Source of the DNA: an uncultured Methanosarcinales archaeon
GTDB taxonomy: Archaea; Nanobdellota; Nanobdellia; Woesearchaeales; JACPBV01
Direction of reading: 5' to 3'
DNA: 64,000 nucleotides
Assembly (NCBI GenBank): GCA_964618315.1
Contig: CAZTWQ010000001.1
Coordinates: 6,877 to 70,876, forward strand
In this document: in pieces, positions 13,091 through 52,948 of the stretch
Layout: the number at the start of each line of letters is the position of its first letter
How positions within the stretch are numbered: the stretch's first letter is position 1
Position numbers and translations under genes: made by a program
The notes under the pieces: generated by a model
What the model saw: the letters and a program-made list of their open reading frames with translations, nothing else
Database searches by the model: none
Told to the model about the DNA's origin: nothing

Positions 13091-14137
13091 TTATCCTGAA
13101 TAATCATATTTATTCATTTTAAATCCAGAATTAACCCTATGTCTTATTGTGCTTGGAGGTATATTAATTAGGGGTGATATTTTATAAGGAGTTAATCCTT
13201 TTTCTGTTAATTCTTTTATTCTTATATTCTGATTATTTATCTTTTCAAATCTTTTTTGATAATGATTTAAAGCATTCGAAAGTTTTTTTCTTTTTTCAGG
13301 ATGAGTAAATCCAATTAGTTTACTATATCTAAGGATTGATTTATTGCGGCCTATTGTGATAGTTGGTTCAGAAATCCTAGATTGAATTCCTAAGTCTTCC
13401 AATAGGGATTTGATGAATAGGAGCTCTTCCTCGCACTTTTGTGATCCACTAACAGAAAACATGCCTTTTTTTAGATTGAAATGGACACAACCTTCATCAT
13501 CAAAGAAAGCCTTTAGATATATTTTTTTGTATTCATCATTAGTTATTATGATAGTTTTATCAAAATTAAGAATATCTAAATGCATTAATTTGGAAGAGTA
13601 AATAAGTTGAGTTACTCCTGAACCTACTTTTGATCTTGTTGGTTTTAATCCATAAACAAAGCCCATATCATTTTCAAATTCACTTAATAATTCTTGATTT
13701 TTGTTTATGTAACTAATTACATAAGAGTTATTTTTACTAACATAACCATCAAATATTGAATGTGCATAGATCCTTACTTTTTCTTTGGTTATTTTATCAA
13801 ATCCTTTTTTAAGGGGTTTAGGATAGATAGGAAATTGAACTTTCCCCTTAATGCAATCTTTTATGAAATTTATAGAATGGCCTGTAATTTTTCTAACTTT
13901 TCTTAGAGATTTAACTTTGTTATAAATCTTACATAGATTGTCAACTTTTTGGTTTTTCTTAATTCCTGCTATTTCACTATTAGATTTTATATGAATTCCA
14001 CCCTTGATTAATCTTTTCTTAATGCCTTCTCTTGAAAGTCCAAACTTTTTTGCTAAATTAGTTAATGTTATTCTTTTATCTAAGACATATATTTTTTCAA
14101 TTTCTTTAATTATTTCTTCTGATATTTTTTTTATCAT
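13091..14137 (-). CDS. LAGLIDADG-type homing-endonuclease-like protein with N- and C-terminal HTH domains
   Basis: Two LAGLIDADG-like motifs (HSIFDGYVS and KAFFDDEGCV), an N-terminal HTH (LTNLAKKFGLSREGIKKRL) and a C-terminal HTH (GLTPYKISPLINIPPSTIRHRV). Confidence 0.6.
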   Translation of the reverse strand: MIKKISEEIIKEIEKIYVLDKRITLTNLAKKFGLSREGIKKRLIKGGIHIKSNSEIAGIKKNQKVDNLCKIYNKVKSLRKVRKITGHSINFIKDCIKGKVQFPIYPKPLKKGFDKITKEKVRIYAHSIFDGYVSKNNSYVISYINKNQELLSEFENDMGFVYGLKPTRSKVGSGVTQLIYSSKLMHLDILNFDKTIIITNDEYKKIYLKAFFDDEGCVHFNLKKGMFSVSGSQKCEEELLFIKSLLEDLGIQSRISEPTITIGRNKSILRYSKLIGFTHPEKRKKLSNALNHYQKRFEKINNQNIRIKELTEKGLTPYKISPLINIPPSTIRHRVNSGFKMNKYDYSG

Positions 14138-14299
14138 CTTAAATCACCTCCATTTAAGATTTCTTTTAATTTATTGGAAGAAATCAGGGGGGTTGAAAAA
14201 AGATACCTGAAAGCTAAACTCCATAATTGATTTTTGTGTCTGAAAGATCAAAAATCATTATTTAGGAGTTTTGCATGGTCTCTTTTTTATTAAGAGTGT

Positions 14300-14430
14300 A
14301 GAATTACTCATTTATATATCCTGCGGGGGTGTCTGGCAAGTGGCAAGTGGGTGCCTAAAACTACTGTAACCATTAAATTTAGGCTCTAGAAGGCTTCTCG
14401 CACTTGCCAAAATTTTGGCAAGTGGGATGA
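14300..14430 (+). other. conserved upstream module A: TATA-like box followed by an array of GGCAAGTG motifs (two direct, one inverted, one direct); possible divergent ncRNA or operator array
   Basis: TTTATATAT at 14311; TGGCAAGTGGCAAGTGG at 14334..14350; CACTTGCCAAAATTTTGGCAAGTGGG at 14401..14426. Roughly 80% identical to the module at 41930..42055. Confidence 0.4.
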
Positions 14431-14440
14431 TTAACTTGAG

Positions 14441-15121
14441 TTATTTCTTCTTAGGTTCCTTTACAGAACCTCTTAAATACCAAACTAGAAGGTACACAAA
14501 TGGTGTGTCTGCTAACGCTAAAACTACTTTTAGAAGATAGTATGGAATTATTAATGTGAAAAGGTATGCCACATTGAACTTAGGGCTTGTGTTTAGGGTC
14601 TGTGGGAGCCAAGGTATGTAGTATAATGCTATGAACATGAACAGGACTGAATCCAGGAATTGTGATACTATGGTTGATGCGTTGTTTCTTAGCCATAGCC
14701 ATTTTCCTTTTGTCTTTTGTTTCCAGAAGTTGAATGCCCATACATCATGGAGCTGGCTGACTATAAATGCTAGTATAGATGCTATGAAGAACCTTAAAGA
14801 CATTCCAAAAACGGGGGTGTATTGTTCTGCCTGAACATAGCTTCTTGCAGCAAAAGGCAGTTTTACAGCTATTGCTGTAATTATTAAAACAAATAACATA
14901 CAGATAAAGCCAACCCATACGAACATCTTTGTTTTTTCTTTTCCATGGACTTCTTCAACTGCATCTGTTATCAAGAATGTTATGGGGTAAGCAAATATTC
15001 CCACACTTACCTGAATAACCCAGAATTGTGTGATCTTGCCACCTATCAGATTAGCAGCTATCAGTGAAGCTACAAATAGACCAAGTAGAAGATTTGTTTT
15101 AGATTTTAAGTCCCACTTCAT
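14441..15121 (-). CDS. yhhQ: queuosine/archaeosine precursor transporter (YhhQ/VUT family, DUF165)
   Basis: AYPITFLITDAVEEVHG matches the YhhQ signature (FPxTFxxTDxxxEVYG); 226 aa, polytopic. Confidence 0.7.
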   Translation of the reverse strand: MKWDLKSKTNLLLGLFVASLIAANLIGGKITQFWVIQVSVGIFAYPITFLITDAVEEVHGKEKTKMFVWVGFICMLFVLIITAIAVKLPFAARSYVQAEQYTPVFGMSLRFFIASILAFIVSQLHDVWAFNFWKQKTKGKWLWLRNNASTIVSQFLDSVLFMFIALYYIPWLPQTLNTSPKFNVAYLFTLIIPYYLLKVVLALADTPFVYLLVWYLRGSVKEPKKK

Positions 15122-15227: not shown

Positions 15228-16283
15228 TCAAGGCAATAAGCCAGAGAATAGAATTACTATGAAAATGGTGTATAATATAAGAAATATTATCCCTTCTGTG
15301 CGCCTGATCTTCCAATAACTTTTGATAAACATTAAGAGCAAGATAGTCATAGCTATCATAAATGGGGCTGAATATAGTAAGGTTGATTTGATGATTGTTA
15401 ATGGTGCTATTAATCCTGAAATGCCTATAACTAAGAAGATATTTGCAATGTTAGATCCAATAACATTACCTATAGCTATATTACCATAGCCTTTTCTTGC
15501 AGCTGATATTGAGACGCTTAGTTCTGGCAGGGATGTGCCTAACGCTATAATGCTTATGCCTATAAATGTTTGAGGTATGTTTAATATTTTTGCAAAAAAT
15601 ACTGCTTCTTGTACCAGATATTTTGCACCAAAGACAACTGCTGCTCCTGCAATTGCTGAAATAAGCAAGTCTTTGATCAGGGCTTCTTTGAATAATTGTT
15701 TTATTTCTGTTTTTTGTTTTCTTGTTATTTTGTTTTCTTTATTAGCTTTTGACATCAATCTATCTTTTATCGTAAATATATACTGGAATTTGAAGAAATA
15801 TTTTATGAATTCATTGAAATGATATTTTTCCCCTAATTCTGGTTTTAGTTCAATCAGGAAAAGGATGTAAGCAAAATAAAGTATAATGAAGATTATGGAT
15901 TCTAATTTTGAGATATTGCTGTTCAAAGCAAATACATAGAATAATAATGCTGCAAATAACATGATATATCCATCTCTTTTGAGCATATCTTCTTTTGTTT
16001 TGATTACTGCTATTGTTGCTGCTACCCCTATTATCAATCCTATATTTGCTATATTTGATCCAACTACATTGCCTATGACAATCCCGCTTTGGTTTTTTAG
16101 GGAAGCTATTACTGAAGAAGCTAATTCTGGTATGGATGTGCCTAGTGCGACTAATGTTAAACCTATGACAAACTCTGAGACGCCCAGTTTTTCTGCTATA
16201 GATGCAGCTGATTTTACGAAGAAGTCTGATCCTTTGACTAATAAGATCAAACCTGCTATGAAAATTAATATGTTTATTATCAT
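15228..16283 (-). CDS. Ca2+/Na+ antiporter (CaCA family, YrbG-like)
   Basis: Two alpha-repeat motifs (GTSIPELASSV, GTSLPELSVS; GNVVGSNIANIGL, GNVIGSNIANIFL). Confidence 0.8.
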   Translation of the reverse strand: MIINILIFIAGLILLVKGSDFFVKSAASIAEKLGVSEFVIGLTLVALGTSIPELASSVIASLKNQSGIVIGNVVGSNIANIGLIIGVAATIAVIKTKEDMLKRDGYIMLFAALLFYVFALNSNISKLESIIFIILYFAYILFLIELKPELGEKYHFNEFIKYFFKFQYIFTIKDRLMSKANKENKITRKQKTEIKQLFKEALIKDLLISAIAGAAVVFGAKYLVQEAVFFAKILNIPQTFIGISIIALGTSLPELSVSISAARKGYGNIAIGNVIGSNIANIFLVIGISGLIAPLTIIKSTLLYSAPFMIAMTILLLMFIKSYWKIRRTEGIIFLILYTIFIVILFSGLLP

Positions 16284-17050
16284 GGATTAAACTCCGTTTT
16301 ATTAATTTTTAGTAAAAAATATAATCCAACAAAAAACATCGCTATATTTAGCCATTGACCCATGGTCAATCCTAGGATAAATCCTATGCTTCCGGGGTCT
16401 TTTACAAATTCTATCATGAATCTTATTGATGAGTATAGTAAAACAAATGACCAAAACAGAGTTCCTTTCTTTAATTGTTTTTCTTTTAGGTTCCATAGGA
16501 TTGTAAATATTATTAAGTTTTTTAGGCTCTCATAGATTTGGGATGGGTGTCTGCAACCAGTATAGTTTTTGAAATATACGCACCAGGGCAGGCTTGTGAT
16601 TCTTCCAACTAATTCACTGTTTATGAAGTTGGCTATTCTTCCTAAGAAAAGGCCGAATGCTAATGGGATGACTGTAATATCTGCTAGATCATATAAATCT
16701 ATGTGCTTTTTTTTGCAGAATAAGTAACCTGCTAATACTGCTCCAACCAAACCACCATGGAAGCTTAATCCTCCCTGCCATATTGCTATCATCTTTAATG
16801 GATTTGCTGCATAATAAGCTGGTTCGTAGAAGATTATCTCAAATAATCTTGCTCCCAGAATGGTACCTATAATCAAGTAGAAGATATAATCTGCAATGTC
16901 GTCTTTGGTTAGATTGAGGTTTCTTTTGTTAGCTATATGATATATGATGAAATATGCAATCAGAAAACCTAAAGCGTAGATAATACCATAATATCTAATC
17001 TCTAATGGTCCTATCCTAAATAATGTTGGGTCTATATTATGGTAAAACAT
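16280..17050 (-). CDS. lgt: prolipoprotein diacylglyceryl transferase
   Basis: Lgt signature GGLSFHGGLVGAVLAGY and GRIANFINSE; 256 aa with 7 TM segments. Confidence 0.8.
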   Translation of the reverse strand: MFYHNIDPTLFRIGPLEIRYYGIIYALGFLIAYFIIYHIANKRNLNLTKDDIADYIFYLIIGTILGARLFEIIFYEPAYYAANPLKMIAIWQGGLSFHGGLVGAVLAGYLFCKKKHIDLYDLADITVIPLAFGLFLGRIANFINSELVGRITSLPWCVYFKNYTGCRHPSQIYESLKNLIIFTILWNLKEKQLKKGTLFWSFVLLYSSIRFMIEFVKDPGSIGFILGLTMGQWLNIAMFFVGLYFLLKINKTEFNP

Positions 17051-17855: not shown

Positions 17856-17926
17856 TATGATATTATGTACCTAGCTTTTTTATAAACATTTTGTTTTATT
17901 GGCATTTGAAGAAGAAATGAATAAGG

Positions 17927-18089
17927 GGCTGCGTTGAAAATCTCACTACGTTCGGGTTGCCATCGGGTTCGCTTCTTGAAGTTGGTATGGATAACTGACA
18001 TTCCCCGTAAGGGACCTCCCCCTTGTCAGTTTGAAGTGATTATCTATCAAGCTCACGAATTGATGGCGACCTATATTTTCAACGCAGCC
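17927..18089. mobile_element. MITE-like element E1 (163 bp, about 15-bp TIR GGCTGCGTTGAAAAT, degenerate TSD)
   Basis: Its core is about 90% identical to E2 (36713..36875). Perfect terminal inverted repeats GGCTGCGTTGAAAAT / ATTTTCAACGCAGCC. Flanks GAATAAG / GGATAAG look like a decayed TSD. Confidence 0.45.
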
Positions 18090-18166
18090 ATGGATAAGAA
18101 GAAACTTTTTATTTATACCTTATAAACAACACAATGTTTATAAATGTCAATAAAACCTTTTAAGAA

Positions 18167-23923: not shown

Positions 23924-24364
23924 ATGTTAAGAGGGAGGCATATTTTTGACAAAGGGGCTTCAAAATTACTCATTTCTAGACTTAGAAATATACAAAAAAA
24001 AGAAGGTTACTTATCTGAAGAGAATCTGAAAGGAGTATCAAAAGAAACAAAAATACCTATAACAAGGGTATATGAAGTGGCTACATTCTATTCATTTTTT
24101 AATGTGAAGAAAAAAGGCAAGCATGTAATCAGATTATGTAACTCCCCTGCATGTCTTGTTAATGGTTCTGAGAATATATTAGATATATTTGAGAAATTAT
24201 TAGGTATTAAATTAGGACAGACAACAGAAGATGGGAATTTTACTCTAGAAACCACTTCATGTATAGGGTGCTGTGATGAAAGCCCAGCAGCTTTAGTAGA
24301 TGAAAAAGCACATACTAATCTTAATGAAGATAAAATAAAAGAGATAATCGAAAAATGCAAGTAA
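23924..24364 (+). CDS. NuoE-like [2Fe-2S] subunit of bifurcating [FeFe]-hydrogenase (HydC)
   Basis: NuoE-type Cys pattern CNSPAC...TSCIGCC. Confidence 0.8.
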   Translation: MLRGRHIFDKGASKLLISRLRNIQKKEGYLSEENLKGVSKETKIPITRVYEVATFYSFFNVKKKGKHVIRLCNSPACLVNGSENILDIFEKLLGIKLGQTTEDGNFTLETTSCIGCCDESPAALVDEKAHTNLNEDKIKEIIEKCK

Positions 24365-25458
24365 CTAAAAAAACAGAGTTTAAGGGATTTGAAAAAGCAG
24401 TAAATTTGAAGCCAGAAGAAGTTATACAGGTAGTTAAAAAATCAGGATTAAAAGGGAGGGGGGGAGCAAACTTCTCAACAGGTCTAAAATGGGAATTTAC
24501 AAGAAAAAGTCCAAATCCTACTAAAGTTGTTATATGCAATGCTGATGAAGGGGAGCCAGGCACTTTTAAGGATAAATTAATACTTACAGAGAACCCATCT
24601 ATTGTAATTGAAGGGATAGCGATTGCAGCTTATGCAATTGGAGCTAAATTTGCTTATATCTATTTAAGAGCAGAATACGAGTATTTGAAGGAAAATCTTG
24701 AAAAAGCAATAGAAGAATATAAGGCTGAGTTGGACAAGATAGAATTAAATATTGATATTGTGATGGGTGCTGGAGCTTATATTTGTGGTGATGAAACTGC
24801 AATAATGAATTCTATACAAGAGCTTAGAGGAGAGCCACATGCAAAACCACCATATCCAGTTGAATCAGGGTTATGTAATTATCCAACTACAATAAATAAT
24901 GTTGCTACATTGGCAAATGTTCCCTTGATAATGTTAGATGAATGGGATGATCTAAGATTATATTCATTATCAGGTAATTTAGATAGTCCAGGGGTTTATG
25001 AGATGCCTTTAGGAATAACTACTAAAGAACTTATTGAGAAAGGAACCCCTAAAGAAGAGATAAAAGCATTATTCTTTGGATGTGCAGGTGGTTGTTTACC
25101 TTATGATCCTGAAATGAAACTGGATGTTGAATCAGTAAATGAAAAAGGTGCAATGCTTGGGAGTTGCACTGTTATTGCAATTGGAAAAAGCCAAAGCATA
25201 CCTAAAATCTGTAAGAATATAGCTGAATTTTTTGTTCATGAAAGTTGTGGTAAATGTACTCCTTGTAGGGAAGGTAATTTTAGAGTTTTAGAGATAATCA
25301 ATAAGATTGTTGAAAATAAAGCAGATGAAGATGATTTGAATGCATTGGAGGATCTTGCTATTTTTATCAACAAAACTTCATTATGTGGATTAGGACAAGC
25401 ATCTAACACACACATAAAAACAGCACTAAAATATTTTAGAGAGGAATTTACAAAATGA
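24355..25458 (+). CDS. NuoF-like NADH-binding FMN/[4Fe-4S] subunit (HydB, minimal form)
   Basis: GRGGANFSTGLKW, FMN and NADH motifs and ESCGKCTPCREG; lacks the N-terminal thioredoxin-like and C-terminal ferredoxin domains present in the second copy. Confidence 0.8.
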   Translation: MQVTKKTEFKGFEKAVNLKPEEVIQVVKKSGLKGRGGANFSTGLKWEFTRKSPNPTKVVICNADEGEPGTFKDKLILTENPSIVIEGIAIAAYAIGAKFAYIYLRAEYEYLKENLEKAIEEYKAELDKIELNIDIVMGAGAYICGDETAIMNSIQELRGEPHAKPPYPVESGLCNYPTTINNVATLANVPLIMLDEWDDLRLYSLSGNLDSPGVYEMPLGITTKELIEKGTPKEEIKALFFGCAGGCLPYDPEMKLDVESVNEKGAMLGSCTVIAIGKSQSIPKICKNIAEFFVHESCGKCTPCREGNFRVLEIINKIVENKADEDDLNALEDLAIFINKTSLCGLGQASNTHIKTALKYFREEFTK

Positions 25459-27152
25459 GCCAGATTATGATAAATGGGGTTCAATTTGAGGCAAAAGAAG
25501 GGGAGACTATCCTTGAATTATGCAAAAGAAACAATGTAGAGATACCTCACCTTTGTTACCATCCTGATCTAGAAGCTCAAGCAAGATGTAGGATATGTGT
25601 TGTGAGTGTAAATGGTAAATTAGTCACTTCATGTAATACAAAAGTAATTGATGGTATGAACATAATAACAGAGAATGATGAGATAATAAAAGCAAGGAAA
25701 TTGAATATGGAATTGCTGCTTGCTAACCATGATGCTAAGTTAGAGGATAATGAGTTAGGTAAAGTTGCAAAAAAATTAGGTGTAGATAAAAGCAGGTTTG
25801 ATAAAATTCAAGATAAAACAGTTGATGATAGCAGTGCAGGGATACATCATGATAACAATAAATGCATATTGTGTGGGAGATGCGTACAAAAATGCCAAAC
25901 TATTCAAAGTGTTTTTGCAATAGGATTTGAAAACAGAGGACACTATACTGAAGTAAACCCTTACTTTAATCACGGATTAGGTGATGTTTCATGTGTTCTT
26001 TGCGGTCAATGTACAAATGTCTGCCCTTCTCAGGCATTGATGGAAAAAGATTATACTAAAGAAGTTACAGATGCTATAAATGATTCTGATAAGGTAGTTA
26101 TTGTACAGACAGCACCTTCAATAAGAGGTACACTAGGGGAGACTCAAGGTATGGAGCCAGGAAGTTTAGTAACTGGAAAGATGGTCGCTGCTTTAAGAAA
26201 ATTAGGTTTTGATAAAGTACTAGATACAAACTTTACAGCTGATTTAACAATAGTTGAGGAAGGAAATGAACTTATTCAAAGGGTGAAAAATAAGGGGGTA
26301 CTCCCACAGATAACTTCATGCAGCCCTGGTTGGGTAAAATTTATAGAGCATTTTTATCCTGAACTCCTACCTAATTTAAGTTCATGTAAGAGTCCTCAGC
26401 AAATGTTTGGGACTTTGTTAAAGACATATTATGCTAAAAAGAATAATATTGATCCTTCTAAGATAGTTTCGGTTTCAATAATGCCTTGTATAGCTAAGAA
26501 ATACGAGATGAACAGGCCGGAGATGAAAGATTCTGGTTTTAAAGATGTTGATTATTCCTTAACTACGAGGGAGCTTGGAAGGATGATAAAAGACGCAGGG
26601 ATTGATTTTGCTAATCTAGAAGATGATAAATTCGATCCTATAATGGGTGAGTCAACTGGTGCTGCAGCAATATTTGGAGCTACTGGTGGTGTAATGGAAG
26701 CCGCTTTGCGTACAGCTGTAGATATTTTAGAAGGAAAAGATCTTCAAGAGATAGAATATACTGGAGTTAGAGGATTAAAAGGAATAAAAGAAGCAACAGT
26801 TAAGGTTGCTGGTATTGATGTTAGTGTAGCTGTTGCTCATGGCCTAGGAAATGCAAGAGCACTTATGGAAATGGTCAAGAAATATCCTTCAAAATATCAT
26901 TTTATAGAAATAATGGCATGTCCTGGTGGATGTGTTGGTGGAGGGGGTCAACCAGCCCCTACTAATTCTGAAGTTGTAAAGAAAAGATCAGAAGCACTTT
27001 ATGCGGAAGATAAGGGCTTAACTTATAGAAAATCACATAAGAACCCTGAAATAATCCAGCTTTATGAAGAGTTCTTAAAAGAGTATGGTTCGCATAAAGC
27101 ACATGAATTATTGCATACAAAATACACAGCAATGAATGAATTAGGGGATTAG
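25455..27152 (+). CDS. hydA: [FeFe]-hydrogenase catalytic subunit HydA (copy 1, non-canonical L1 motif)
   Basis: N-terminal 2Fe-2S plus two [4Fe-4S] motifs. H-cluster motif L2 MPCIAKKYE and L3 EIMACPGGCVGGGGQP are present, but L1 reads TSCSPGW instead of the canonical TSCCPxW. Confidence 0.85.
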   Translation: MSQIMINGVQFEAKEGETILELCKRNNVEIPHLCYHPDLEAQARCRICVVSVNGKLVTSCNTKVIDGMNIITENDEIIKARKLNMELLLANHDAKLEDNELGKVAKKLGVDKSRFDKIQDKTVDDSSAGIHHDNNKCILCGRCVQKCQTIQSVFAIGFENRGHYTEVNPYFNHGLGDVSCVLCGQCTNVCPSQALMEKDYTKEVTDAINDSDKVVIVQTAPSIRGTLGETQGMEPGSLVTGKMVAALRKLGFDKVLDTNFTADLTIVEEGNELIQRVKNKGVLPQITSCSPGWVKFIEHFYPELLPNLSSCKSPQQMFGTLLKTYYAKKNNIDPSKIVSVSIMPCIAKKYEMNRPEMKDSGFKDVDYSLTTRELGRMIKDAGIDFANLEDDKFDPIMGESTGAAAIFGATGGVMEAALRTAVDILEGKDLQEIEYTGVRGLKGIKEATVKVAGIDVSVAVAHGLGNARALMEMVKKYPSKYHFIEIMACPGGCVGGGGQPAPTNSEVVKKRSEALYAEDKGLTYRKSHKNPEIIQLYEEFLKEYGSHKAHELLHTKYTAMNELGD

Positions 27153-27302: not shown

Positions 27303-27908
27303 ATGCCTTATCTTAAACAAGTAACAATAAACAATAATGAATACTATTACCTATTCCATACAGTAAGAGTAGGGGATAAATTCAAAAAATTAAGCAAGTA
27401 TGTAGGTAAGAATAAGCCATCGGATAATGAATTAGGTAGATTAAAAAAAGAATTCCTTAAAGAAATAAATAAAGAGCCTGTTGAATTTGAAGAAGAAGTT
27501 CCAAAAGTTAATGTTGTTGAAGAATTGCAAGATCTGCAAGATAAAGAGGGGTATCTATCTAAAGAAAGTATGATCAAAATTTCAAAAGAGAAAGATATAC
27601 CTGGTGTTAAGCTCTATGGTGTTGCAACTTTTTATTCTCAATTTAGACTAAAACAAAAAGCAAAGAATACAATAAGTGTTTGTAGGGGAACTGCATGTCA
27701 TGTTAAGGGTTCTGATTCTTTATTAGAATATCTGGAAGAAATTCTAGAAATAAAATCTGGGCAGACAACAAAAGATGGAAAAATAAACCTGGAGTGTGTT
27801 AATTGTATAGGTGCTTGTGCAAAAGCTCCTGCGATTATGGTTAATGATGAAGTGTATGGTGAATTAACCAAAGAAAAAGTGAAAAAAATAATTGAAGGAC
27901 TAAAATGA
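27303..27908 (+). CDS. NuoE-like [2Fe-2S] subunit (HydC copy 2) with an N-terminal extension
   Basis: CRGTACHVKGS...CVNCIGACAKAP; the roughly 70-aa N-terminal extension is of uncertain reality. Confidence 0.75.
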   Translation: MPYLKQVTINNNEYYYLFHTVRVGDKFKKLSKYVGKNKPSDNELGRLKKEFLKEINKEPVEFEEEVPKVNVVEELQDLQDKEGYLSKESMIKISKEKDIPGVKLYGVATFYSQFRLKQKAKNTISVCRGTACHVKGSDSLLEYLEEILEIKSGQTTKDGKINLECVNCIGACAKAPAIMVNDEVYGELTKEKVKKIIEGLK

Positions 27909-29632
27909 AAATTACAGTTGGATTAGCAACATGTGGAATTTCCGCAGGAGGGATGCCTGTTTTTGAAGCTTTGAAGAATGAGGGTTTTGAAGTAGAAAAA
28001 GTTGGATGTATAGGTATGTGTTATAATGAGCCATTAGTAACTGTCATTGAAGGTGATAAAAGAGAAGTTTATGGTTTGGTTACAAAAGATAATGTGCAAA
28101 AGTTGATTGATTGTCTTAAGAAAGAAGAAGTGTGTAAAGAACTATTCATAACTGATAATATTAATGAACTTGATTTCTATAAGAAACAAAAAAGATTAGT
28201 AATGGAAAATTGTGGTTTGATAAATCCATTAAGTTTGGAACAATACAAAGAAAATGAAGGGTATAAGGGGTTGAAAAAAGCTTTAGATATTGAACCTAAT
28301 CAGGTTATAGAAAATATAAAGAGTTCGGGGTTAAGAGGTAGAGGGGGGGCAGGTTTTCCTGTAGGACTTAAGTGGAGTTTTATTGTAGACAAAAAGGGGA
28401 AGAAATATCTAATCTGTAATGGAGATGAAGGTGATCCTGGAGCATTTATGAATCGTACAATAATGGAATCTGATCCCTTTAAGCTTATAGAAGGTATGAC
28501 AATAGCAGCATATGCCATAGGTTCTGATGAAGGTATCATATATACTAGGGCAGAATATCCTTTGGCAATAAAGACCTTAGAAAAAGCAATTAAAATAGCA
28601 AATGATAATAATCTTCTTGGAGATAATATATTGGGAAAGAAGAATTTTAACTTTAAGTTATATATCAAAAAAGGTGCAGGAGCTTTTGTTTGTGGAGAAG
28701 AAACTGCTTTGATAAATTCAATAGAAGGTAAGAGAGGTATGCCTAGGCCAAGACCACCTTATCCTACTGATTGTGGGTTGTATGGAAAGCCAACTGTAAT
28801 AAACAATGTAGGGACACTCAGCCATATAGCTACAATAATGAAAATAGGTGTTGATGAATATATCAAGATTGGTACTGAGAAAACAAAAGGGACTAAAGTT
28901 ATATGCTTAGCGGGGAAGATAAAAAGAGCAGGAGTTATTGAAGTTCCAATGGGTATTCTGTTAAGAGACATAATATTTGAGATTGGGGGTGGTGTTCCAG
29001 AAGGAACTAAGTTTAAAGCTGTACTATCTGGTGGACCTGCAGGGGGATGTGTACCTGAACAACATTTAGATATCCCGCTAGACTATGAACCATTACAGGA
29101 ACTAGGGGCAATAATGGGTTCAGGAGGCATAGTTGTCATAAACGATAAATCATGCATGGTTGATGTTGCAAGATATTTTATGAGTTTCACACAAGAAGAA
29201 AGCTGCGGCAAATGCACCCCTTGTAGAGAAGGGACAATGCGTTTACTTGAGATGCTAACACAAATAACCAGAGGTGTTGGTGGAAGAGAAGATATCAATA
29301 AAATAAAATTATTGTCTGAATTTGTCAGGGATAATGCATTATGTGGTCTTGGACAGAATGCTCCTAACCCCATACTTTCTACATTAAGGTTTTTTGAAAA
29401 TGAATATATAGATCATCTGGAAAAGAAAAAATGTCCTGCAAAAGCATGTAAAGGTCTTGTAAAATATAGTATAACCGAGAAATGTATTGGTTGTGGGAAC
29501 TGCGCAAGGCATTGCCCTGTTGAGGCTATATCCGGTAACTTAAAAGAGAAACATGTGATTGAACAAAGTAAATGTGTAAAATGTGGGAAGTGTTATGAAG
29601 CATGCGCTTTTGATGCTATTGAGAAAAAATGA
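27905..29632 (+). CDS. NuoF-like subunit (HydB copy 2, full-length, with C-terminal 2x[4Fe-4S] ferredoxin domain)
   Basis: GRGGAGFPVGLKW, ESCGKCTPCREG, and a C-terminal CIGCGNCARHCP...CVKCGKCYEACA. Confidence 0.85.
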   Translation: MKITVGLATCGISAGGMPVFEALKNEGFEVEKVGCIGMCYNEPLVTVIEGDKREVYGLVTKDNVQKLIDCLKKEEVCKELFITDNINELDFYKKQKRLVMENCGLINPLSLEQYKENEGYKGLKKALDIEPNQVIENIKSSGLRGRGGAGFPVGLKWSFIVDKKGKKYLICNGDEGDPGAFMNRTIMESDPFKLIEGMTIAAYAIGSDEGIIYTRAEYPLAIKTLEKAIKIANDNNLLGDNILGKKNFNFKLYIKKGAGAFVCGEETALINSIEGKRGMPRPRPPYPTDCGLYGKPTVINNVGTLSHIATIMKIGVDEYIKIGTEKTKGTKVICLAGKIKRAGVIEVPMGILLRDIIFEIGGGVPEGTKFKAVLSGGPAGGCVPEQHLDIPLDYEPLQELGAIMGSGGIVVINDKSCMVDVARYFMSFTQEESCGKCTPCREGTMRLLEMLTQITRGVGGREDINKIKLLSEFVRDNALCGLGQNAPNPILSTLRFFENEYIDHLEKKKCPAKACKGLVKYSITEKCIGCGNCARHCPVEAISGNLKEKHVIEQSKCVKCGKCYEACAFDAIEKK

Positions 29633-31338
29633 ATAAAATAAAGATTAGGTTGAATAGTGTAGATGTTGAATGTAAAGAAGGGGATATGATTATAGATGTA
29701 GCTAAGAAAAATGGTATTGACATACCCCACTTCTGCCATAATGGCAGGCTAGAAAGGATAGGTGCATGTAGGATATGTGTTGTTGAACAAAAAGGAAAAC
29801 AAAAATTAGTTGCTTCTTGTTGTACTCCGGTTAATGAGGGGATGGAAATAGTTACACACACCCCCAGAGTTTTGGAGGCAAGAAGGATTAATATTGAGCT
29901 TTTGCTTGCAAACCATGATTTGAATTGTACAACCTGCAAGGAAAATCTAATCTGTAAACTACAAAGATATGCTGAAGAGTTAATGGTAAGAGATATAAGG
30001 TTTGAGGGAGAAAAAAGATGGGAGGATGTTGATAATTCAAGTGTTTCTATAAGGAGGGATAATAATAAATGCATACTTTGTGAACAATGTGTTAGGATAT
30101 GTAGCAATATACAGACAGTACATGCTATTGGATTACAGAACAGGGGTTTTAACACAAAGGTTGCACCCCCATTTAATACTCCAATAAACAAGAGTTCTTG
30201 TGTAAAATGCGGTCAGTGTGTTGTTGCTTGTCCAACAGCTGCATTAACTGAAAAAAGTGATATACAACCAGTTATAGATGCACTCAACTCTGATAAATAT
30301 TTAGTTGCACAAACTGCTCCTTCTATCCGTGCTACATTAGGCGAATGTTTTGGGATGCCTGCTGGAACATCTGTAACGGGCAAGATGGTTGCTGCTTTGA
30401 GGAAGATAGGTTTCAAGAAAGTTTTTGATACTGACTTAGCTGCTGATATTTGCATAATAGAAGAAGCAACAGAATTTGTTAAGAGATTTAAAGATAAAAA
30501 AAATTTACCTATGATAACAACTTGTTGTCCTGCATGGATCAAGTTTGGAGAACAGTTCTTTTTTGAGCAGCTTAACCACATGTCTTCATGTAGAAGTCCC
30601 CAAGCAATACTTGCCTCTTTGATCAAAACCTATTTTGCAAAGAAGATGAAAGTAGATCCAAAAGATATTATCTTGGTAGATATTATGCCCTGCACAGCAA
30701 AGAAATTTGAAATATTGAGACCTGAGTTCAAAGGAGAAGCAGATTATGTTTTGACCACAATAGAGCTTGCTAAGCTTATAAAACAACTTGATGTAGATTT
30801 TGTTAATCTTAATGATGAAGATTTTGATAATCCATTGGGTGAAAGCACAGGAGCAGGAGCAATATTTGGCCATACTGGGGGAGTAATGGAAGCTGCTTTG
30901 CGTACTGTAGCTGATTGGGTCAGTGGAAAAAATCTAAAGAAGATAGATTATAAAGATATAAGAAATATGGAAACAATGAAAGAGGCTGAACTTAAGATAG
31001 GTGGTGAAAATGTGAGGATAGCTGTTGTCCATACACTAGGTGAAGCCCGTAAATTGATGAATCAGATCAAGGCAGGGAAGAGCCCATATCATTTTATTGA
31101 GATTATGGCATGTTATGGTGGTTGTATTGGGGGAGGAGGACAACCCCCACCACATAATAAGAAAACCTTAGCTAAAAGGACTAAAGCATTAATTGATGTT
31201 GATGAAAGGAAAAAGATAAGAAAATCCCATAAAAATCAATCTGCACTTAAGATCTACAAAGAATATCTAGGGGAGTTTGGGAGTGAAAGAGCACATAAAC
31301 TGCTGCATACAACTTATTCTAAGAAAGAATATATCTAG
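29629..31338 (+). CDS. hydA: [FeFe]-hydrogenase catalytic subunit HydA (copy 2, canonical)
   Basis: L1 TTCCPAW, L2 MPCTAKKFE and L3 EIMACYGGCIGGGGQP, plus the N-terminal FeS domains. Confidence 0.85.
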   Translation: MNKIKIRLNSVDVECKEGDMIIDVAKKNGIDIPHFCHNGRLERIGACRICVVEQKGKQKLVASCCTPVNEGMEIVTHTPRVLEARRINIELLLANHDLNCTTCKENLICKLQRYAEELMVRDIRFEGEKRWEDVDNSSVSIRRDNNKCILCEQCVRICSNIQTVHAIGLQNRGFNTKVAPPFNTPINKSSCVKCGQCVVACPTAALTEKSDIQPVIDALNSDKYLVAQTAPSIRATLGECFGMPAGTSVTGKMVAALRKIGFKKVFDTDLAADICIIEEATEFVKRFKDKKNLPMITTCCPAWIKFGEQFFFEQLNHMSSCRSPQAILASLIKTYFAKKMKVDPKDIILVDIMPCTAKKFEILRPEFKGEADYVLTTIELAKLIKQLDVDFVNLNDEDFDNPLGESTGAGAIFGHTGGVMEAALRTVADWVSGKNLKKIDYKDIRNMETMKEAELKIGGENVRIAVVHTLGEARKLMNQIKAGKSPYHFIEIMACYGGCIGGGGQPPPHNKKTLAKRTKALIDVDERKKIRKSHKNQSALKIYKEYLGEFGSERAHKLLHTTYSKKEYI

Positions 31339-31539: not shown

Positions 31540-32316
31540 ATGAAAACGCAAAATTTAACTCAAAAATTGAACTTTTATGAATTGATTGGAGTTATTTTGG
31601 GGGATGGATGTATAAAATACTATCCTTCACATAAAGTATATACCCTAGAAATAACTGGAGATGCAAAAGATGATCAAGAATATTTTAGTAAATTATCGAA
31701 GTTAATTACAAGTATAACTAATAAAACTCCAACTGTTAGAATAAGCATAGATAAGAAAAAGCGAGCCTTGAGATTAGAATTACACAGTAAAAAGTTTTTG
31801 GAGTTTTTATTGAACGATGTAGGAATAACTAATAAAAAGAAATCATTCAATGCAGAAATCCCTAAGAAGTACCTAGAGTGGAAATATAGTAAACATATTA
31901 TTAGAGGCATATTTGAAACAGATGGTTCACTTTATTTTTCAAAATCAAAAAAGATTAAATACACTTCTTATCCAAGGATAGAAATTAAGACATCTAGTAA
32001 AAAATTAGCTTTGCAAATATTTGAATTGCTCAAACAAAAAGCTTTTAAAGTACAAAAGAGACCTAGCAAAACAGATAAGACAATTAGAGTCTATCTTAGT
32101 GGATCTGAAATGCTTAATAAATGGTTAAAAGAAATCGGTTTTTCAAGTATGAAAAAATACAGTAAATATTTGTTTTGGAAAAAATTTGGTTATTATATTC
32201 CAAAAACACCTTATAAGAAAAGAATGATTCTCATAAGGGAGCATGGCCAAGTGGCTAAGGCGTCCGCCTGCAGAGCGGATATTCGGGGGTTCAAATCCCT
32301 CTGCTCCCTCTTATAA
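31540..32316 (+). CDS. LAGLIDADG-type homing-endonuclease-like protein (paralog 2); the ORF reads through tRNA-Cys
   Basis: Motifs IGVILGDGCI and IRGIFETDGSL. The last 27 codons or so are encoded by the tRNA-Cys sequence, so the true C-terminus is uncertain. Confidence 0.5.
   Translation: MKTQNLTQKLNFYELIGVILGDGCIKYYPSHKVYTLEITGDAKDDQEYFSKLSKLITSITNKTPTVRISIDKKKRALRLELHSKKFLEFLLNDVGITNKKKSFNAEIPKKYLEWKYSKHIIRGIFETDGSLYFSKSKKIKYTSYPRIEIKTSSKKLALQIFELLKQKAFKVQKRPSKTDKTIRVYLSGSEMLNKWLKEIGFSSMKKYSKYLFWKKFGYYIPKTPYKKRMILIREHGQVAKASACRADIRGFKSLCSLL
32237..32308 (+). tRNA. tRNA-Cys (GCA)
   Basis: Hand-folded cloverleaf: acceptor GGGAGCA/TGCTCCC, anticodon stem TCCGC/GCGGA with loop CTGCAGA, T-loop TTCAAAT; 72 nt with no encoded CCA; immediately upstream of cysS. 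Confidence 0.8.
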
Positions 32317-32348: not shown

Positions 32349-33746
32349 GTGATAAATATGTTAAAACTATACAATACACTAGGCAGAAAGAAAGACGTTT
32401 TTGAGCCTATCAATAAGAAAGAAGTAGGGATGTATAGTTGCGGGCCTACTGTTTATAACTTTGCCCACATAGGTAATTTTAGGGCTTATATAGTTGCAGA
32501 TCTTCTGAAAAAATATCTTAAGTTTAAAGGATTTAATGTAAAGCATGTAATGAATATTACAGATGTTGATGATAAGACAATAAAGGGCTCTATACAAGAG
32601 AAGATTTCTTTGAAAAAGTATACTAAGAAATATACTGATGCATTTCTTAGTGATCTTAAAACATTAAATATCTCAGAAGCAGATATATTCCCAAGGGCAA
32701 CAGATCATATCAATGAGATGGTTGCAATGATTCAGAAGCTTAGCGACAAGGGACTTGCATATAAAGGAGAAGACGGGTCATGGTATTATAGTGTTTCTAA
32801 GTTTAAGAACTATGGAAAGCTTTCAAGACTTAAGTTTGAAGGGTTGAAAGAAGGTGCAAGAGTAAAACAAGATGATTATGATAAAGATCAGGCTCAGGAT
32901 TTTGCTTTGTGGAAAGGTTATTCTAAAGAAGATGGTGATGTTTTTTGGGAAACTTCGCTGGGTAAAGGTCGTCCTGGGTGGCATATTGAATGCAGTGCAA
33001 TGAATACTAAGTATTTAGGTAATGGTTTTGATATACATACTGGTGGAATTGACCTAGTGTTTCCACACCATGAAAATGAGATAGCTCAAGCAGAAGGATG
33101 TACTGAAAGCCCTTATGTAAACTATTGGGTGCATAATGAGCATCTACTTGTTGATGGGAAGAAAATGAGCAAGTCACTAGGTAATTTTTATACTCTTCGT
33201 GATCTGCTTGATAAAGGGTATAGTGCAGTTGCTATAAGATATCTTTTGTTGAGTACGCATTATAGGCAGCAAGCTAATTTTACATTTAAGGCTCTTGAGG
33301 GAGCTAAAGGTGCTGTTGATAAGCTCAATAATTTTATATTTGTCTTAGGGGGCATGGATTGTGATGAAGATGTTGGCAATATAGATGAACTTATCAAAGA
33401 GACCAGAGCTGCTTTTGAGATGAAGATGGACGATGATTTGAATATTTCTGGTGGGTTAGCTGTTATCTTTGACTTCATGAGTGATGTCAACAAGCTTCGC
33501 CTGAGCAAGGACGATGCTTCAAAGGTAATTTCATTTATGAAAGAAGTTGATGCTATATTGGGTGTTATGGATTTTAAAAAGAATGATGAGAATATTCCTA
33601 AAGATATAGAGAGTCTGATCAAGTCGAGAGAAGACGCCAGAAAGAATAAAGATTTTGATAAGGCGGATAAGATAAGGGATGATCTAAAGGAAAAAGGGAT
33701 TGAATTGATAGATACTCCTGAAGGAGTCCGGTGGAAGAAGGTTTAA
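32349..33746 (+). CDS. cysS: cysteinyl-tRNA synthetase
   Basis: HIGN and KMSKS class-I motifs and a CysRS zinc-site context; 465 aa. Confidence 0.9.
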
Positions 33747-36610: not shown

Positions 36611-36712
36611 AATAAGTTAGAGAATAAGGTTATTGTATATAAATGTTTTTGGAATAAAAGAGTAAAGATTAGATCAAACTTTAGAAAAATTTAATAGTCT
36701 TTTGAGAAAAAG

Positions 36713-36875
36713 GGCTTAGTAGAAAATCTCCCGTTGGTCGGGTTGCCATCGGGTTCGCTTCTTGAAGTTGGTATAGATAACTGACATTCCCCGTAAGGGA
36801 CTTCCCCCTTGCCAGTTAGATGTATCTATTTAAGAAGCTCATAAATTGATGGCAACCTATATTTTCTACTAAGCC
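36713..36875. mobile_element. MITE-like element E2 (163 bp) with 19-bp TIR GGCTTAGTAGAAAA... and a perfect 9-bp TSD GAGAAAAAG
   Basis: TSD copies at 36704..36712 and 36876..36884; termini GGCTTAGTAGAAAAT / ATTTTCTACTAAGCC; internal sequence homologous to E1. Confidence 0.55.
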
Positions 36876-36920
36876 GAGAAAAAGAGAATATTAATAAACA
36901 TAAGTTGCTTACTAGTTTCT

Positions 36921-38126: not shown

Positions 38127-38190
38127 TCTGTATCTAATCCATATCAGTAATTCAATTATCATCGTCAAATTCTTTTTTGTAGATGATAAA

Positions 38191-38332
38191 GGCTTAGTAG
38201 AAAAAGTCCTACTACGCTGACTGGAACACCACACTAAAGTGTGGCAACCCAGTAAGCTCCGTCCTGGCCATGCCATGAATACCTCTGGTATTAATGGCAT
38301 TCATGGCACAGACGGACTTTTTCTACTAAGCC
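38191..38332. mobile_element. MITE-like element E3 (142 bp) with the same TIR as E2, a different core, and a perfect 9-bp TSD GATGATAAA
   Basis: TSD copies at 38182..38190 and 38333..38341; 19-bp perfect TIR GGCTTAGTAGAAAAAGTCC / GGACTTTTTCTACTAAGCC; the core carries an extended internal hairpin (CCATGAAT...ATTCATGG). Confidence 0.55.
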
Positions 38333-38358
38333 GATGATAAACATAAATATTTATATAT

Positions 38359-40852: not shown

Positions 40853-40998
40853 GGGGCTGTAGCTCAGCCTGGGAGAGCACTAGACTGAAGTTCCTATGAT
40901 CTGCAGAGGCTTTTGCCGATGAAGAGCAGAGATCTAGGTGTCCTGGGAAGTCGCAATACCATGTGCGTCTTGGGAAAATTCAAATTCCGGCAGCCCCA
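40853..40998 (+). tRNA. tRNA-Phe (GAA) with a canonical 41-nt intron at position 37/38 and a predicted second intron of about 31 nt in the T-arm
   Basis: 5' half GGGGCTGTAGCTCAGCCTGGGAGAGCACTAGACTGAAG; exon 2 A-TCTAG-GTGTC-CTGGG; exon 3 TTCAAATTCCGG-CAGCCCC-A. The mature length would be 74 nt with a standard cloverleaf. Confidence 0.7.
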
Positions 40999-41765
40999 CT
41001 CTTTTTTAAACCTTTTATTATTTTAGGGGGTCTTCCTTTTTTACTTGTGATTGTTCCACTTTTTAGATATTCTTCATACTTATTAAGATGTCTTTGGTTT
41101 CTAAAACCAATTAATTTCATCCATAATTGAAGGTTTTGACGACCACTTAATCTTAATCTGCTTTCAATCCAAGTTTTTCCAAACCTTTTATCAAAATTTC
41201 TATCTTCTGGAATAAAGTCAACATTAAAACCTAATTTTTCTAGAAATTTTGAGAATAGTATGATTATTTTTTTATCCACTAAACTTAAAGATATTACTGG
41301 GTAATGTGGATATTTCTTTCTATTTCTATAGAGCATTAAAGAAAAATCTGTATCTGCTAATCCCTTAAGGGTGTGTAGAAGATAATCTTGGTTATTGAGT
41401 ATCCAATTTGGAATTTTAATATTCCTACTATGATGTTTATAGTATCCCATTCCCTTAATGAAATTGAATAATCCTAGTGAACTGAAGTTAATTTCTATTA
41501 AATTCTTATATTTCCTTTGGATAATTTTAACATTTATGTTAAAAAGGTTTTTGATTAAATTTTTTACATAGTGAAAATAATCATAATCTAATCTAGAATC
41601 TCCTGATACAGATATGATATTATATCTAGTATTAAAGCTAACATGCCCATCTCCTGCCAGTATACCAATAAACTCTGCTAATTTTTTAGATGGTCCCTTA
41701 GGTAAAACTAAGCCTCGTTTTCTATCTACATGACTAAATTCTATTTTTGATATATCAAATTCCAT
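40980..41765 (-). CDS. LAGLIDADG-type homing-endonuclease-like protein (paralog 3)
   Basis: Motifs IGILAGDGHVS and LKGLADTDFS; the 3' end overlaps the 3' end of tRNA-Phe on the opposite strand by about 19 nt. Confidence 0.55.
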   Translation of the reverse strand: MEFDISKIEFSHVDRKRGLVLPKGPSKKLAEFIGILAGDGHVSFNTRYNIISVSGDSRLDYDYFHYVKNLIKNLFNINVKIIQRKYKNLIEINFSSLGLFNFIKGMGYYKHHSRNIKIPNWILNNQDYLLHTLKGLADTDFSLMLYRNRKKYPHYPVISLSLVDKKIIILFSKFLEKLGFNVDFIPEDRNFDKRFGKTWIESRLRLSGRQNLQLWMKLIGFRNQRHLNKYEEYLKSGTITSKKGRPPKIIKGLKKSGAAGI

Positions 41766-41929
41766 CTTAAATCACCTCCATTAAGATTTCTTTTCATTTA
41801 TTGAAAGAAATTCTTGGAGATTTGAAAAAAGAGGTCAAAGAGCGAAACTCTGTAATTGATTTTCTAGAAAGTGGAAAATCATTATTTAACAGTTTTGCGT
41901 GAACTCTTTTTTATTAAGAATGTAAAAAT

Positions 41930-42055
41930 ACTAGTTTATATATCTGGCGGAGGTGGTTGGCAAGTGGCAAGTGGGGGTGCTAAAACAGCTAATTCATTAG
42001 AATTTAAATGATAGAAGGCTTCTCGTCACTTGCCAAAATGTTGGCAAGTGAGATT
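41930..42055 (+). other. conserved upstream module B (paralog of module A): TATA-like box plus a GGCAAGTG motif array
   Basis: TTTATATAT at 41936; TTGGCAAGTGGCAAGTGGG at 41957..41975; CACTTGCCAAAATGTTGGCAAGTG at 42027..42050. The whole 41766..42070 stretch is homologous to 14138..14440. Confidence 0.4.
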
Positions 42056-42160
42056 AATGAATTATTATCCCAAAATAACAGCAAGATTTATAGACCTTAA
42101 CGCATTTCCATTATAAATAAACGGCAAGGAATTAAAATAAAAATTTAATATAAGGCTAAC

Positions 42161-52713: not shown

Positions 52714-52948
52714 ACTTATAATCAGTTTTTTTAGTTCATATTTAAAACTTTTTAAAATCTAAAAGATTTTAAAACGGTTTGAAAAATAAGGATTTTCAAA
52801 ACTTTTTAAATTTTAAAACGATTTGAAAAGTATATCTTTTCATTTCTTTAGATTTATATTGGACATGTGGTATATATATTTTTATGTATATTATTATATA
52901 TATTAATATAGAAACATTTAAATAGTACTTATATGTAGAAATAAATAT

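Follow-up and report, generated by a model that had tools for sequence, protein, structure and literature searches.

The 64,000-nt stretch of DNA analysed here (contig CAZTWQ010000001.1, referred to as the window) carries three short elements, E1, E2 and E3, which we describe as MITEs (miniature inverted-repeat transposable elements). The window is archaeal and DPANN-like: it encodes the large subunit of RFC, and its valyl-tRNA synthetase (ValRS) has its nearest named relatives in metagenome-assembled genomes (MAGs) of Nanoarchaeota and Woesearchaeota at 65-72% identity, with a best match of 76%. The three elements and their flanks are listed below, with scores against R1, a covariance model that we built for the E1/E2 type.

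17927..18089, + strand: E1, a 163-bp MITE of family 0 (structured core); ends GGCTGCGTTGAAAAT / ATTTTCAACGCAGCC; R1 score 146.6 bits
17917..17925, unstranded: left copy of the decayed E1 target-site duplication, ATGAATAAG, with one additional G at 17926
18090..18098, unstranded: right copy of the decayed E1 target-site duplication, ATGGATAAG, 8/9 against ATGAATAAG with a 1-nt offset
36713..36875, + strand: E2, a 163-bp MITE of family 0; ends GGCTTAGTAGAAAAT / ATTTTCTACTAAGCC; R1 score 143.6 bits
36704..36712, unstranded: left E2 target-site duplication, GAGAAAAAG, 9/9 against 36876-36884
36876..36884, unstranded: right E2 target-site duplication, GAGAAAAAG, 9/9 against 36704-36712
38191..38332, + strand: E3, a 142-bp MITE whose core belongs to another family (related elements at loci L034 and L095), with perfect 19-nt ends
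38182..38190, unstranded: left E3 target-site duplication, GATGATAAA, 9/9 against 38333-38341
38333..38341, unstranded: right E3 target-site duplication, GATGATAAA, 9/9 against 38182-38190

A preliminary description, made from the letters of the window, had delimited three elements with perfect inverted ends, and we recovered them at the same coordinates with perfect terminal repeats of 15 nt in E1 (GGCTGCGTTGAAAAT), 15 nt in E2 (GGCTTAGTAGAAAAT) and 19 nt in E3 (GGCTTAGTAGAAAAAGTCC). It had credited all three with 9-bp duplications; those of E2 and E3 are indeed perfect, while that of E1 has decayed. E1 and E2 are identical at 138 of 163 positions (84.7%) and their cores at 85.7%, less than the roughly 90% given before. 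Their ends differ at three positions per arm (5, 6 and 9 on one side, 155, 158 and 159 on the other) rather than at the five described, and all of these changes are complementary between the arms, as had been noticed. The core of E3 is wholly different, in agreement with the earlier account: its R1 score of 39.8 bits reflects the ends only, and E1 and E2 were the sole matches when the window was searched with the model. Each element forms a whole-length hairpin (folding z = -6.9 to -10.5 against shuffled sequences), and GC content is 44-48% in the elements compared with 33% in the window. Small size, lack of a transposase gene and the presence of three copies in 64 kb are the features of MITEs.

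The elements belong to a much larger set. We scanned one genome per species with the pattern GGCTNNGTNGAAAA-N(110-140)-TTTTCNACNNAGCC and found at least 112 loci, all locus counts being lower bounds; by our own estimate about two matches were expected by chance. Further copies, for which the preliminary description had proposed to look, are thus plentiful. The listed loci lie overwhelmingly in Woese-, Pace-, Nano-, Aenigm- and Iainarchaeota, with a few in Chlamydiae, Planctomycetota and Verrucomicrobiota, and several MAGs carry two to four loci each, again as lower bounds. The ends of this superfamily follow GGCTNNGTNGAAAAWNTC; its consensus end reads GGCTCTGTAGAAAA and continues with WNTC, with positions 1-4, 7-8, 10-12, 14 and 17-18 conserved. 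Elements measure 138-168 bp around a non-coding core of 105-135 nt, and the cores of the listed elements fall into 49 BLAST clusters. Family 0, the E1/E2 type, has 61 copies at 64 bits or more by covariance model. The GC content of the elements tracks that of their hosts over a range of 0.38-0.64, which implies long residence.

Flanks were assessed in 123 elements, comprising those of the window, L001-L112 and L113-L118, the last of which re-sample E2 and E3. Perfect 9-bp direct repeats flank 56 of these 123 elements and repeats with at most one mismatch flank 71, whereas a shifted-flank control yielded no element with two or fewer mismatches. The earlier reading of the flanking repeats as something other than chance therefore holds. 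We give practically no credence to the idea that the elements are hairpins arisen by chance, or ordinary terminators, whose flanking repeats are coincidence: the AT-rich flanks would suit it and nothing else does, and it is refuted by the excess of end-pattern matches in the scan, the empty duplication control and the covariation statistics given below.

We compared the ends with those of the insertion sequence (IS) IS903. The left end of IS903 matched plasmid records at 100%, and a copy from a Klebsiella plasmid (L139) is 1057 bp long with GGCTTTGTTGAATAAATC at both ends. The MITE end variant GGCTTTGTTGAAAATCTC is identical to the IS903 end at 15 of 18 positions, including positions 1-12 and 17-18. 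IS903 itself produces duplications of 9 bp, and its preferred target is WTTYA-N9-TRAAW (PMC2577343 Table 1; PMC13618097). A logo of the reconstructed MITE target sites has TTT at -4 to -2 and AAA at +2 to +4; positions -1 and +1 differ from IS903, and the signal is partly confounded with the promoter motif described below. Because end sequence, duplication length and target motif match IS903, we assign the elements to the IS903 group of the IS5 family, and at the level of sequence they are MITEs of that group.

Other IS families with GG or GGC ends, namely IS1, the ISPna2 group of IS1595 and ISL3, are very improbable sources. What spoke for them was a resemblance of the first 7 nt to their ends, which are GGnnnTG with 8-9 bp duplications for IS1, GGCnnTG with 8 bp for IS1595 ISPna2 and GGCTCTT..AAAA with 8 bp for ISL3; this was their sole support, and we dropped them on duplication length and on the evidence for IS903. 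The listed elements have 9-bp flanks in 56 cases and 8-bp flanks in 7, their 18-bp end agrees with IS903 at positions 1-12 and 17-18, and their target motif is that of IS903 (PMC2577343). Moreover, autonomous ISs with this end encode transposases of the IS903 group.

These autonomous ISs came from a scan of metagenome contigs for a MITE end followed 65-95 nt later by NWxxYNxxLxxRG, the N-terminal motif of the IS903 transposase. The scan returned 15 loci, where we estimate the chance expectation at well below one. Both ends were on the contig in 11 of the 15; these elements are 1039-1059 bp long with ends GGCTGTGTTGAAAAATTC, and two of them carry GGCTTTG. An intact-looking transposase of 271-298 aa is encoded by 10 autonomous elements, although the 271-aa version looks truncated. 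The autonomous transposases share 33-38% identity with that of IS903 over nearly the full length (E 1e-53 to 1e-64), and PF13737 together with PF01609 is found on thousands of homologues of the same size, mostly from 1-kb contigs. Perfect 9-bp duplications flank three autonomous copies (L146, L155 and L174), and another was reconstructed across L168 and L170. The 14-nt autonomous end also occurs on the DPANN MITEs L016 and L081 and on the left end of L004; the end allele GGCTGTGTTGAAAA, for which an autonomous element with PF13737 and PF01609 was seen, is carried by DPANN MITEs L004, L016 and L081. An IS with matching ends and 9-bp duplications, as the preliminary description had proposed to seek, was thus found with the same end pattern, though not with the end type of E2 and E3. 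Its claim that the elements are MITE-like, non-autonomous and moved in trans by a DDE transposase is supported by these ISs together with the 112 or more genomic loci.

No transposase is encoded in the window, as had been stated: none of its 37 open reading frames (ORFs) of at least 200 aa has a transposase match in Pfam, and tblastn with the IS903 and IS903-like transposases detected no fragments in the window or at any of the DPANN loci. Relaxed end pairs 300-4000 bp apart within the 112 loci gave no autonomous copy, and a search for homologues of the IS903 transposase returned enterobacterial copies only. Two candidates were set aside: an end pair at L085 encloses no transposase, and a weak tblastn match at L054 that might have been a transposase remnant is unrelated. 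As a separate observation, the autonomous IS903-group element is very abundant in soil and other metagenomes, where it occurs mostly as stand-alone 1-kb contigs (L140-L155, L166-L174).

The MITEs and their autonomous relatives resemble IS903 and IS903B in having an inverted repeat of about 18 bp that starts with GGCT and ends with TC, a 9-bp target duplication, palindromic AT-rich target flanks (TTY...RAA) and, in the autonomous relatives, a DDE transposase of about 300 aa with PF13737 and PF01609. Unlike IS903, the MITEs reside in DPANN archaea, differ at end positions 5, 6, 9 and 13-16, and are 138-168 bp long, their cores bearing no relation to the interior of the IS. The transposase of the autonomous relatives has just 33-38% identity to that of IS903, and no such relative was found in DPANN genomes.

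We also examined how the ends vary. Positions 5, 6 and 9 take discrete forms, CTA being followed by TAA, CTT, TTT, GCT, GTT, CAA and others, and in 89 of 126 elements both arms have the same form. The E1 end type GGCTGCGTTGAAAA, whose concerted change in both arms had drawn attention in the preliminary description, is a widespread allele (L030, L034, L043, L090, L095) and not private to E1. The alleles do not follow the core families: L034 and L095, which are related to E3, have the allele of E1, and E2 and E3, which have unrelated cores in one genome, are both TAA. Among unrelated cores of the same genome the allele was common to five of seven pairs, compared with 28% between genomes (p = 0.02 in this small sample), which hints at matching to a resident transposase. 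The complementary arms form the terminal stem P1 of the covariation-supported fold described below and would equally fit selection on a hairpin. Concerted changes in both MITE arms can thus be read as discrete end alleles rather than single events. In one MAG (JBBSWB01), two elements with unrelated cores (L053 5201-5352 and L072 2343-2503) carry the same asymmetric pair, one arm being CTA and the other TAA.

Removal of the element plus one duplication copy restored an ORF-like frame at 15 of 105 sites, compared with 70% of random positions, an intergenic bias. The typical distance from the element end to the start codon is 45-48 nt. The motif RAAANNTTTA, corresponding to the archaeal transcription factor B recognition element (BRE) and TATA box, occupies +1 to +10 after the duplication in 63% of cases where that side faces a gene start, in 13% where it faces a gene end, and in 3% of random sequence. 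E2 and E3 fit this arrangement, with the following predicted motifs:

36885..36898, + strand: predicted BRE/TATA-like sequence agaatattaataaa, adjoining the E2 duplication, ~25-35 nt upstream of the RFC large-subunit start (36921); putative promoter
38342..38357, + strand: predicted TATA-like sequence cataaatatttatata, adjoining the E3 duplication, upstream of a class II aminoacyl-tRNA synthetase gene with its start near 38380; putative promoter

For E1 the distance to the next start is 77 nt; since its duplication has decayed, the E1 flank was left out of the BRE/TATA scoring. The data suggest that the elements insert immediately upstream of archaeal BRE/TATA promoters. The precise phasing could arise because the A-run of the BRE coincides with the RAA half of an IS903-type target, combined with selection against other insertions. 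Such nucleotide-precise placement amounts to a natural experiment on archaeal promoter architecture.

We then analyzed the core of family 0, whose copies share a mean identity of 61% between genomes (range 47-99%). The fold comprises the terminal stem P1, a mini-hairpin P1a and helices P2, P5 and P6, of which the following parts are referred to by position:

17954..17966, + strand: E1 helix P2, 5' strand, pairing with 18060-18072; the E2 equivalent is 36740-36752 with 36846-36858
17995..18029, + strand: E1 P5/P6/triplex module; P5 is 17995-18000 with 18024-18029, P6 is 18002-18005 with 18011-18014
18020-18023, + strand: proposed third strand of E1, within the bulge TCCCCCT (18017-18023), identified by base-triple covariation in parallel register
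36781..36815, + strand: E2 P5/P6/triplex module; P5 is 36781-36786 with 36810-36815, P6 is 36788-36791 with 36797-36800, proposed third strand 36806-36809

The fold was tested on a plain MAFFT alignment of 37 copies, with a hand-drawn structure (P1, P1a, P2, P5, P6), and on a model-fitted alignment of 61 copies. In the former, 91.5% of cells were paired, compared with 35-45% when the partners were slid against each other; 26 of 40 pairs had changed on both sides, and the covariation score was 0.315 against at most 0.074 in the slid control. The model-fitted alignment, which leans towards the model, gave 92.8% paired cells, 29 of 40 double changes and a score of 0.466 against at most 0.082. A shuffle test of covariation reached the observed value in 0 of 500 trials. 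All 12 pairs of P2 have changed on both sides across the 61 copies. These data demonstrate that the helices of the E1/E2 type are kept by compensatory change. The modelled helices contain 137 G·U and 42 A·C oppositions, and this excess of G·U points to selection on one strand, which is the + strand of the window for both E1 and E2. Unpaired nucleotides are conserved in two places, the CCG of the P6 loop and an (A/U)CCCCCU bulge. For the E3 family, an alignment of three sequences holds compensatory changes in 13 of 53 predicted pairs. A reading of UGAUG and CUGA as a K-turn or C/D box was rejected since these bases are Watson-Crick paired and covary.

The hairpin that the preliminary description gave as CCC-GUAA-GGG is real but better written as UCCC-CGUAA-GGGA, after which the conserved bulge (UCCCCCU in E1, (A/U)CCCCCU in the family) leads into the 3' strand of P5. 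Numbering positions by the columns of an alignment of family-0 copies (A5), we found that the bulge covaries with P6 in parallel register, the members of 131•120-105 and of 132•121-104 switching together among C•G-C, U•A-U and G•U-A. Of the nine cases in which pair 105:120 is U:A instead of C:G, eight have U in place of C at bulge position 131; when pair 104:121 becomes U:A, position 132 becomes U (seven cases). Position 104 is A in four copies, three of which have U at 121 and G at 132, the fourth having G at both. Bulge position 133 follows pair 103:122, being U with U:A and C with C:G. For 132 the mutual information amounts to 0.71-0.76 bits and for 131 to 0.34, compared with about 0.02 in crossed registers. 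Fisher tests gave p = 6e-8 for 132•121-104, 5e-7 for 131•120-105 and 1.0 for crossed registers, values that overstate independence, as the sequences are related. C•G-C and U•A-U, together with G•U(T)-A, constitute the pyrimidine-motif triplex code, in which the third strand runs parallel to the purine strand. A triplex relation of this kind is a mirror relation, which template switching or palindrome correction, being inverted or direct copying, cannot produce. Covariation of this kind is what a triple helix within one folded strand, probably of RNA, would leave behind. The 5-nt linker (CA, then A/U, then CC) would be long enough to reach the top of the 4-bp helix. A purine-motif triplex on the complementary strand is formally possible, but the variant triple fits the + strand better. 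Two further pairings of the bulge were discarded: antiparallel pairing of the C-rich bulge with P6 is ruled out by the register of covariation, and a pseudoknot with the CGGG before P2 failed across the aligned copies, as judged by reading the alignment without statistics.

Pyrimidine-motif triples are known from ENE/MALAT1-type elements and from the pseudoknots of telomerase and SAM-II, where U•A-U and C+•G-C triples lie in the major groove; G•T-A recognition is known from DNA triplexes, and H-DNA is a further instance. The E1/E2 core would share with them a third pyrimidine strand parallel to the purine strand and a covariation that obeys the C•G-C/U•A-U/G•U-A code. It differs from the known RNA triplexes in having just four triples on a 4-bp hairpin, in drawing its third strand from a 3' bulge that enters the enclosing helix, and in lacking an A-rich tail partner; no Rfam model matches it and it is known from covariation alone.

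The triplex covariation as such would fit either nucleic acid. We considered whether the fold might act in DNA, as a cruciform or H-DNA-like triplex in supercoiled DNA that unites the ends for the transposase or alters the adjacent promoter. The whole-length hairpins with their strongly negative z scores, the about equal folding of both strands and the location of the elements directly upstream of BRE/TATA motifs would all suit such a role, and mirror-repeat pyrimidine tracts are the classic substrate of H-DNA. A cruciform, however, needs Watson-Crick pairs on both strands, which the preponderance of G·U over A·C contradicts. The triplex has its purine partner on the same strand, where it covaries with both others, so that an intrastrand fold fits better than H-DNA, whose spacer would here be 16-17 nt. 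In duplex DNA, C+•G-C triples also need low pH or strong supercoiling. We regard a DNA-level role as unlikely.

Taken together, we consider it probable that the elements are IS903-type MITEs moved in trans, to which the E1/E2 type adds a core selected for its single-strand fold. Direct observations are the end sequence, the duplication length, the target motif, the copy number, the preference for intergenic sites and the fact that autonomous ISs sharing this end pattern exist. According to this explanation, each element would consist of a pair of 18-bp IS903-type inverted repeats, GGCTNNGTNGAAAAWNTC, around a non-coding core. A DDE transposase of about 295 aa (PF13737 and PF01609), encoded elsewhere, would bind both ends, cut at GGC and insert the element into a 9-bp staggered target flanked by TTY...RAA, generating the 9-bp duplications; such an IS903-type enzyme would have to be active in this genome, binding and moving these ends. 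The archaeal BRE/TATA (RAAANNTTTA) would mimic one half of the target and, in compact genomes where only intergenic insertions survive, elements would come to lie immediately upstream of promoters. The E1/E2 core would be under long-term selection for a specific single-strand fold made up of P1, P1a, P2, P5 and hairpin P6, with a four-triple pyrimidine-motif triplex contributed by the 3' bulge. We infer that the folded strand is expressed as RNA, which might serve as a stable small RNA or as an element that lessens damage to the transcription of its neighbours or makes use of it.

Several findings, besides the relatedness of the sequences behind the Fisher tests, weigh against this explanation. 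None of our searches found an autonomous element that has the end typical of DPANN, GGCTCTGTAGAAAA, or that of E2 and E3, GGCTTAGTAGAAAA, and none found an autonomous copy on any DPANN contig. The autonomous ISs have neighbours that include an IS3-type rve transposase and a TrmA-like methyltransferase, and from such gene neighbours their hosts are probably bacterial. The comparison with empty sites in related strains that the preliminary description had proposed brought no support: every contig with identical neighbouring proteins carries the elements, and no true empty site was found among them. The sole case without E3 is a diverged relative (76% ValRS identity), in which the RFC-ProRS spacer is 62 nt long. 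In tandem gene contexts, family-0 elements are oriented sense to the flanking genes in 11 cases and antisense in 9, showing no bias. Whole-element folding energy likewise has no strand bias, the + strand being more stable in just 25 of 61 copies, and no conserved internal promoter or TATA-like motif was visible on inspection of the family-0 alignment. From the lack of an orientation, energy or promoter signal it follows that the RNA, if made, is not obviously tied to neighbouring genes.

An overlapping alternative differs in what drives the conservation: the E1/E2 type would primarily be a mobile structured gene for a non-coding RNA, its fold including the terminal stem would be kept for the RNA's own function, and transposition would merely spread it. 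It could be a stable small RNA with a regulatory role that works through its exposed C-rich strand, or else a ribozyme or an RNA that binds proteins. Deep covariation at 61% mean identity, the conserved unpaired CCG and (A/U)CCCCCU, the mirror relation of the triples, which goes beyond templated DNA processes, the one-strand G·U excess and the long residence implied by GC content all accord with such a gene, as does a second family with a comparable hairpin. The unbiased orientation and the lack of a visible conserved internal promoter do not, and many other cores, in about 40 BLAST clusters, share the ends without this fold. In addition, Rfam gave no match on the elements, whether for the whole window at gathering score, for E2-E3 at E<=10 or for eight other loci at E<=1. 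We take this alternative seriously, although we think it rather less than an even bet.

The second family just mentioned has the same ends and a UUCG-capped hairpin followed by AACCCACCCU (L039 1904-2056, L075 4269-4418, L023 6463-6604). As this resembles the E1/E2 hairpin with its (A/U)CCCCCU, a C-rich strand 3' of a hairpin may be a functional motif shared by two MITE families.

Returning to the reading of E1/E2 as IS903-type MITEs with a selected fold, we tentatively raise a stronger version, of which we remain doubtful: the core could be an undescribed class of mobile structured RNA of about 135 nt, closed by the inverted repeats of a transposon, containing a pyrimidine-motif triplex and spread by IS903-type transposition to promoter-adjacent sites in DPANN archaea. 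At the RNA level it might function as a nuclease-resistant small RNA, as a regulator acting through its C-rich strand or as a catalytic or processing element. If the core is RNA, it would represent a structured RNA class that is new, for which an alignment of over 60 diverse sequences exists, and small enough for structural and biochemical testing.

Short, intergenic, multi-copy repeats with long hairpins that can affect neighbouring transcripts are familiar from bacteria, where Correia elements of Neisseria, ERIC, the pneumococcal RUP and BOX and REP/BIME share these properties with the MITEs studied here. Family 0 differs in that its helices are kept by compensatory change across genomes at about 61% identity and in its covariation evidence for a tertiary triple helix; to our knowledge this has not been described for the bacterial repeats. 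Archaeal MITEs described from Sulfolobus (SM1-SM4), haloarchaea and Altiarchaeum are likewise non-autonomous, with inverted ends and target duplications. Our literature search on the end sequences and on DPANN MITEs found no description of the superfamily, nor of its end sequence, its IS903 affiliation, its promoter-side insertion or its fold. A census reports one Woesearchaeal genome with 105 MITEs per Mb (PMC11602168). Beyond the known kind of IS903-group MITE, the notable features are the breadth of the superfamily in DPANN, its nucleotide-precise placement against BRE/TATA and its structured core. DPANN genomes are tiny and dense and usually seen as poor in mobile DNA, yet they harbour a superfamily with dozens of unrelated cores, which could be used in these uncultured lineages to trace genome dynamics and horizontal transfer.

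Viral contigs scanned with GGCTCTGTAGAAAAWNTC yielded 20 matches, all of them chance occurrences inside phage or giant-virus genes. At L063, an apparent composite element proved to be a duplicated segment: 200 nt comprising the MITE and its left flank occur twice on one contig, 2.4 kb apart (1-200 and 2380-2580), with a proper duplication on both sides for the second copy only. The repeat is either an assembly artefact or an element-mediated segmental duplication. In two Logan contigs that run from window position 18060 onward (L163 and L164), both from independent assemblies of short reads, the break falls about 30 nt within E1, which is what a repeat that is multi-copy in that population should produce.

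Other features of the window lie apart from the MITEs. A prolipoprotein diacylglyceryl transferase (Lgt; Pfam E = 4e-74), typically bacterial, is encoded next to E1 at 16280-17050 (- strand). A region of about 310 nt occurs twice at about 80% identity (14138-14445 and 41766-42075, both - strand), each copy preceding an ORF. It contains the palindrome CACTTGCCAAAATTTTGGCAAGTG, a doubled CACTTGCCA and GGAGGTGATTTAAG before the start codon, and has no Rfam match. The ORFs that follow (13091-14137 and 40980-41765) have weak LAGLIDADG matches, the latter failing to reach the Pfam cut of 1e-5, and hardly resemble one another (BLASTP E = 0.002). The repeated region may be a leader or promoter common to both ORFs, or may belong to a homing-endonuclease cassette. 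A third LAGLIDADG-like ORF of 258 aa (31540-32316, + strand) overlaps a tRNA-Cys (32237-32310, + strand), and both lie directly upstream of the cysteinyl-tRNA synthetase gene (32349-33746).

Two paralogous modules stand side by side at 24355-27152 and 27905-31338 in this DPANN-type genome, each encoding a NuoF-like flavoprotein and an [FeFe]-hydrogenase large subunit; their H-cluster region is repeated at 78% DNA identity (26894-26966 and 31086-31158). Finally, two tandem AT-rich units of 44 nt, about 70% identical (TTTTAAAA...GGTTTGAAAAATAAGGA), occupy the intergenic positions 52749-52836 upstream of an ABC transporter operon.

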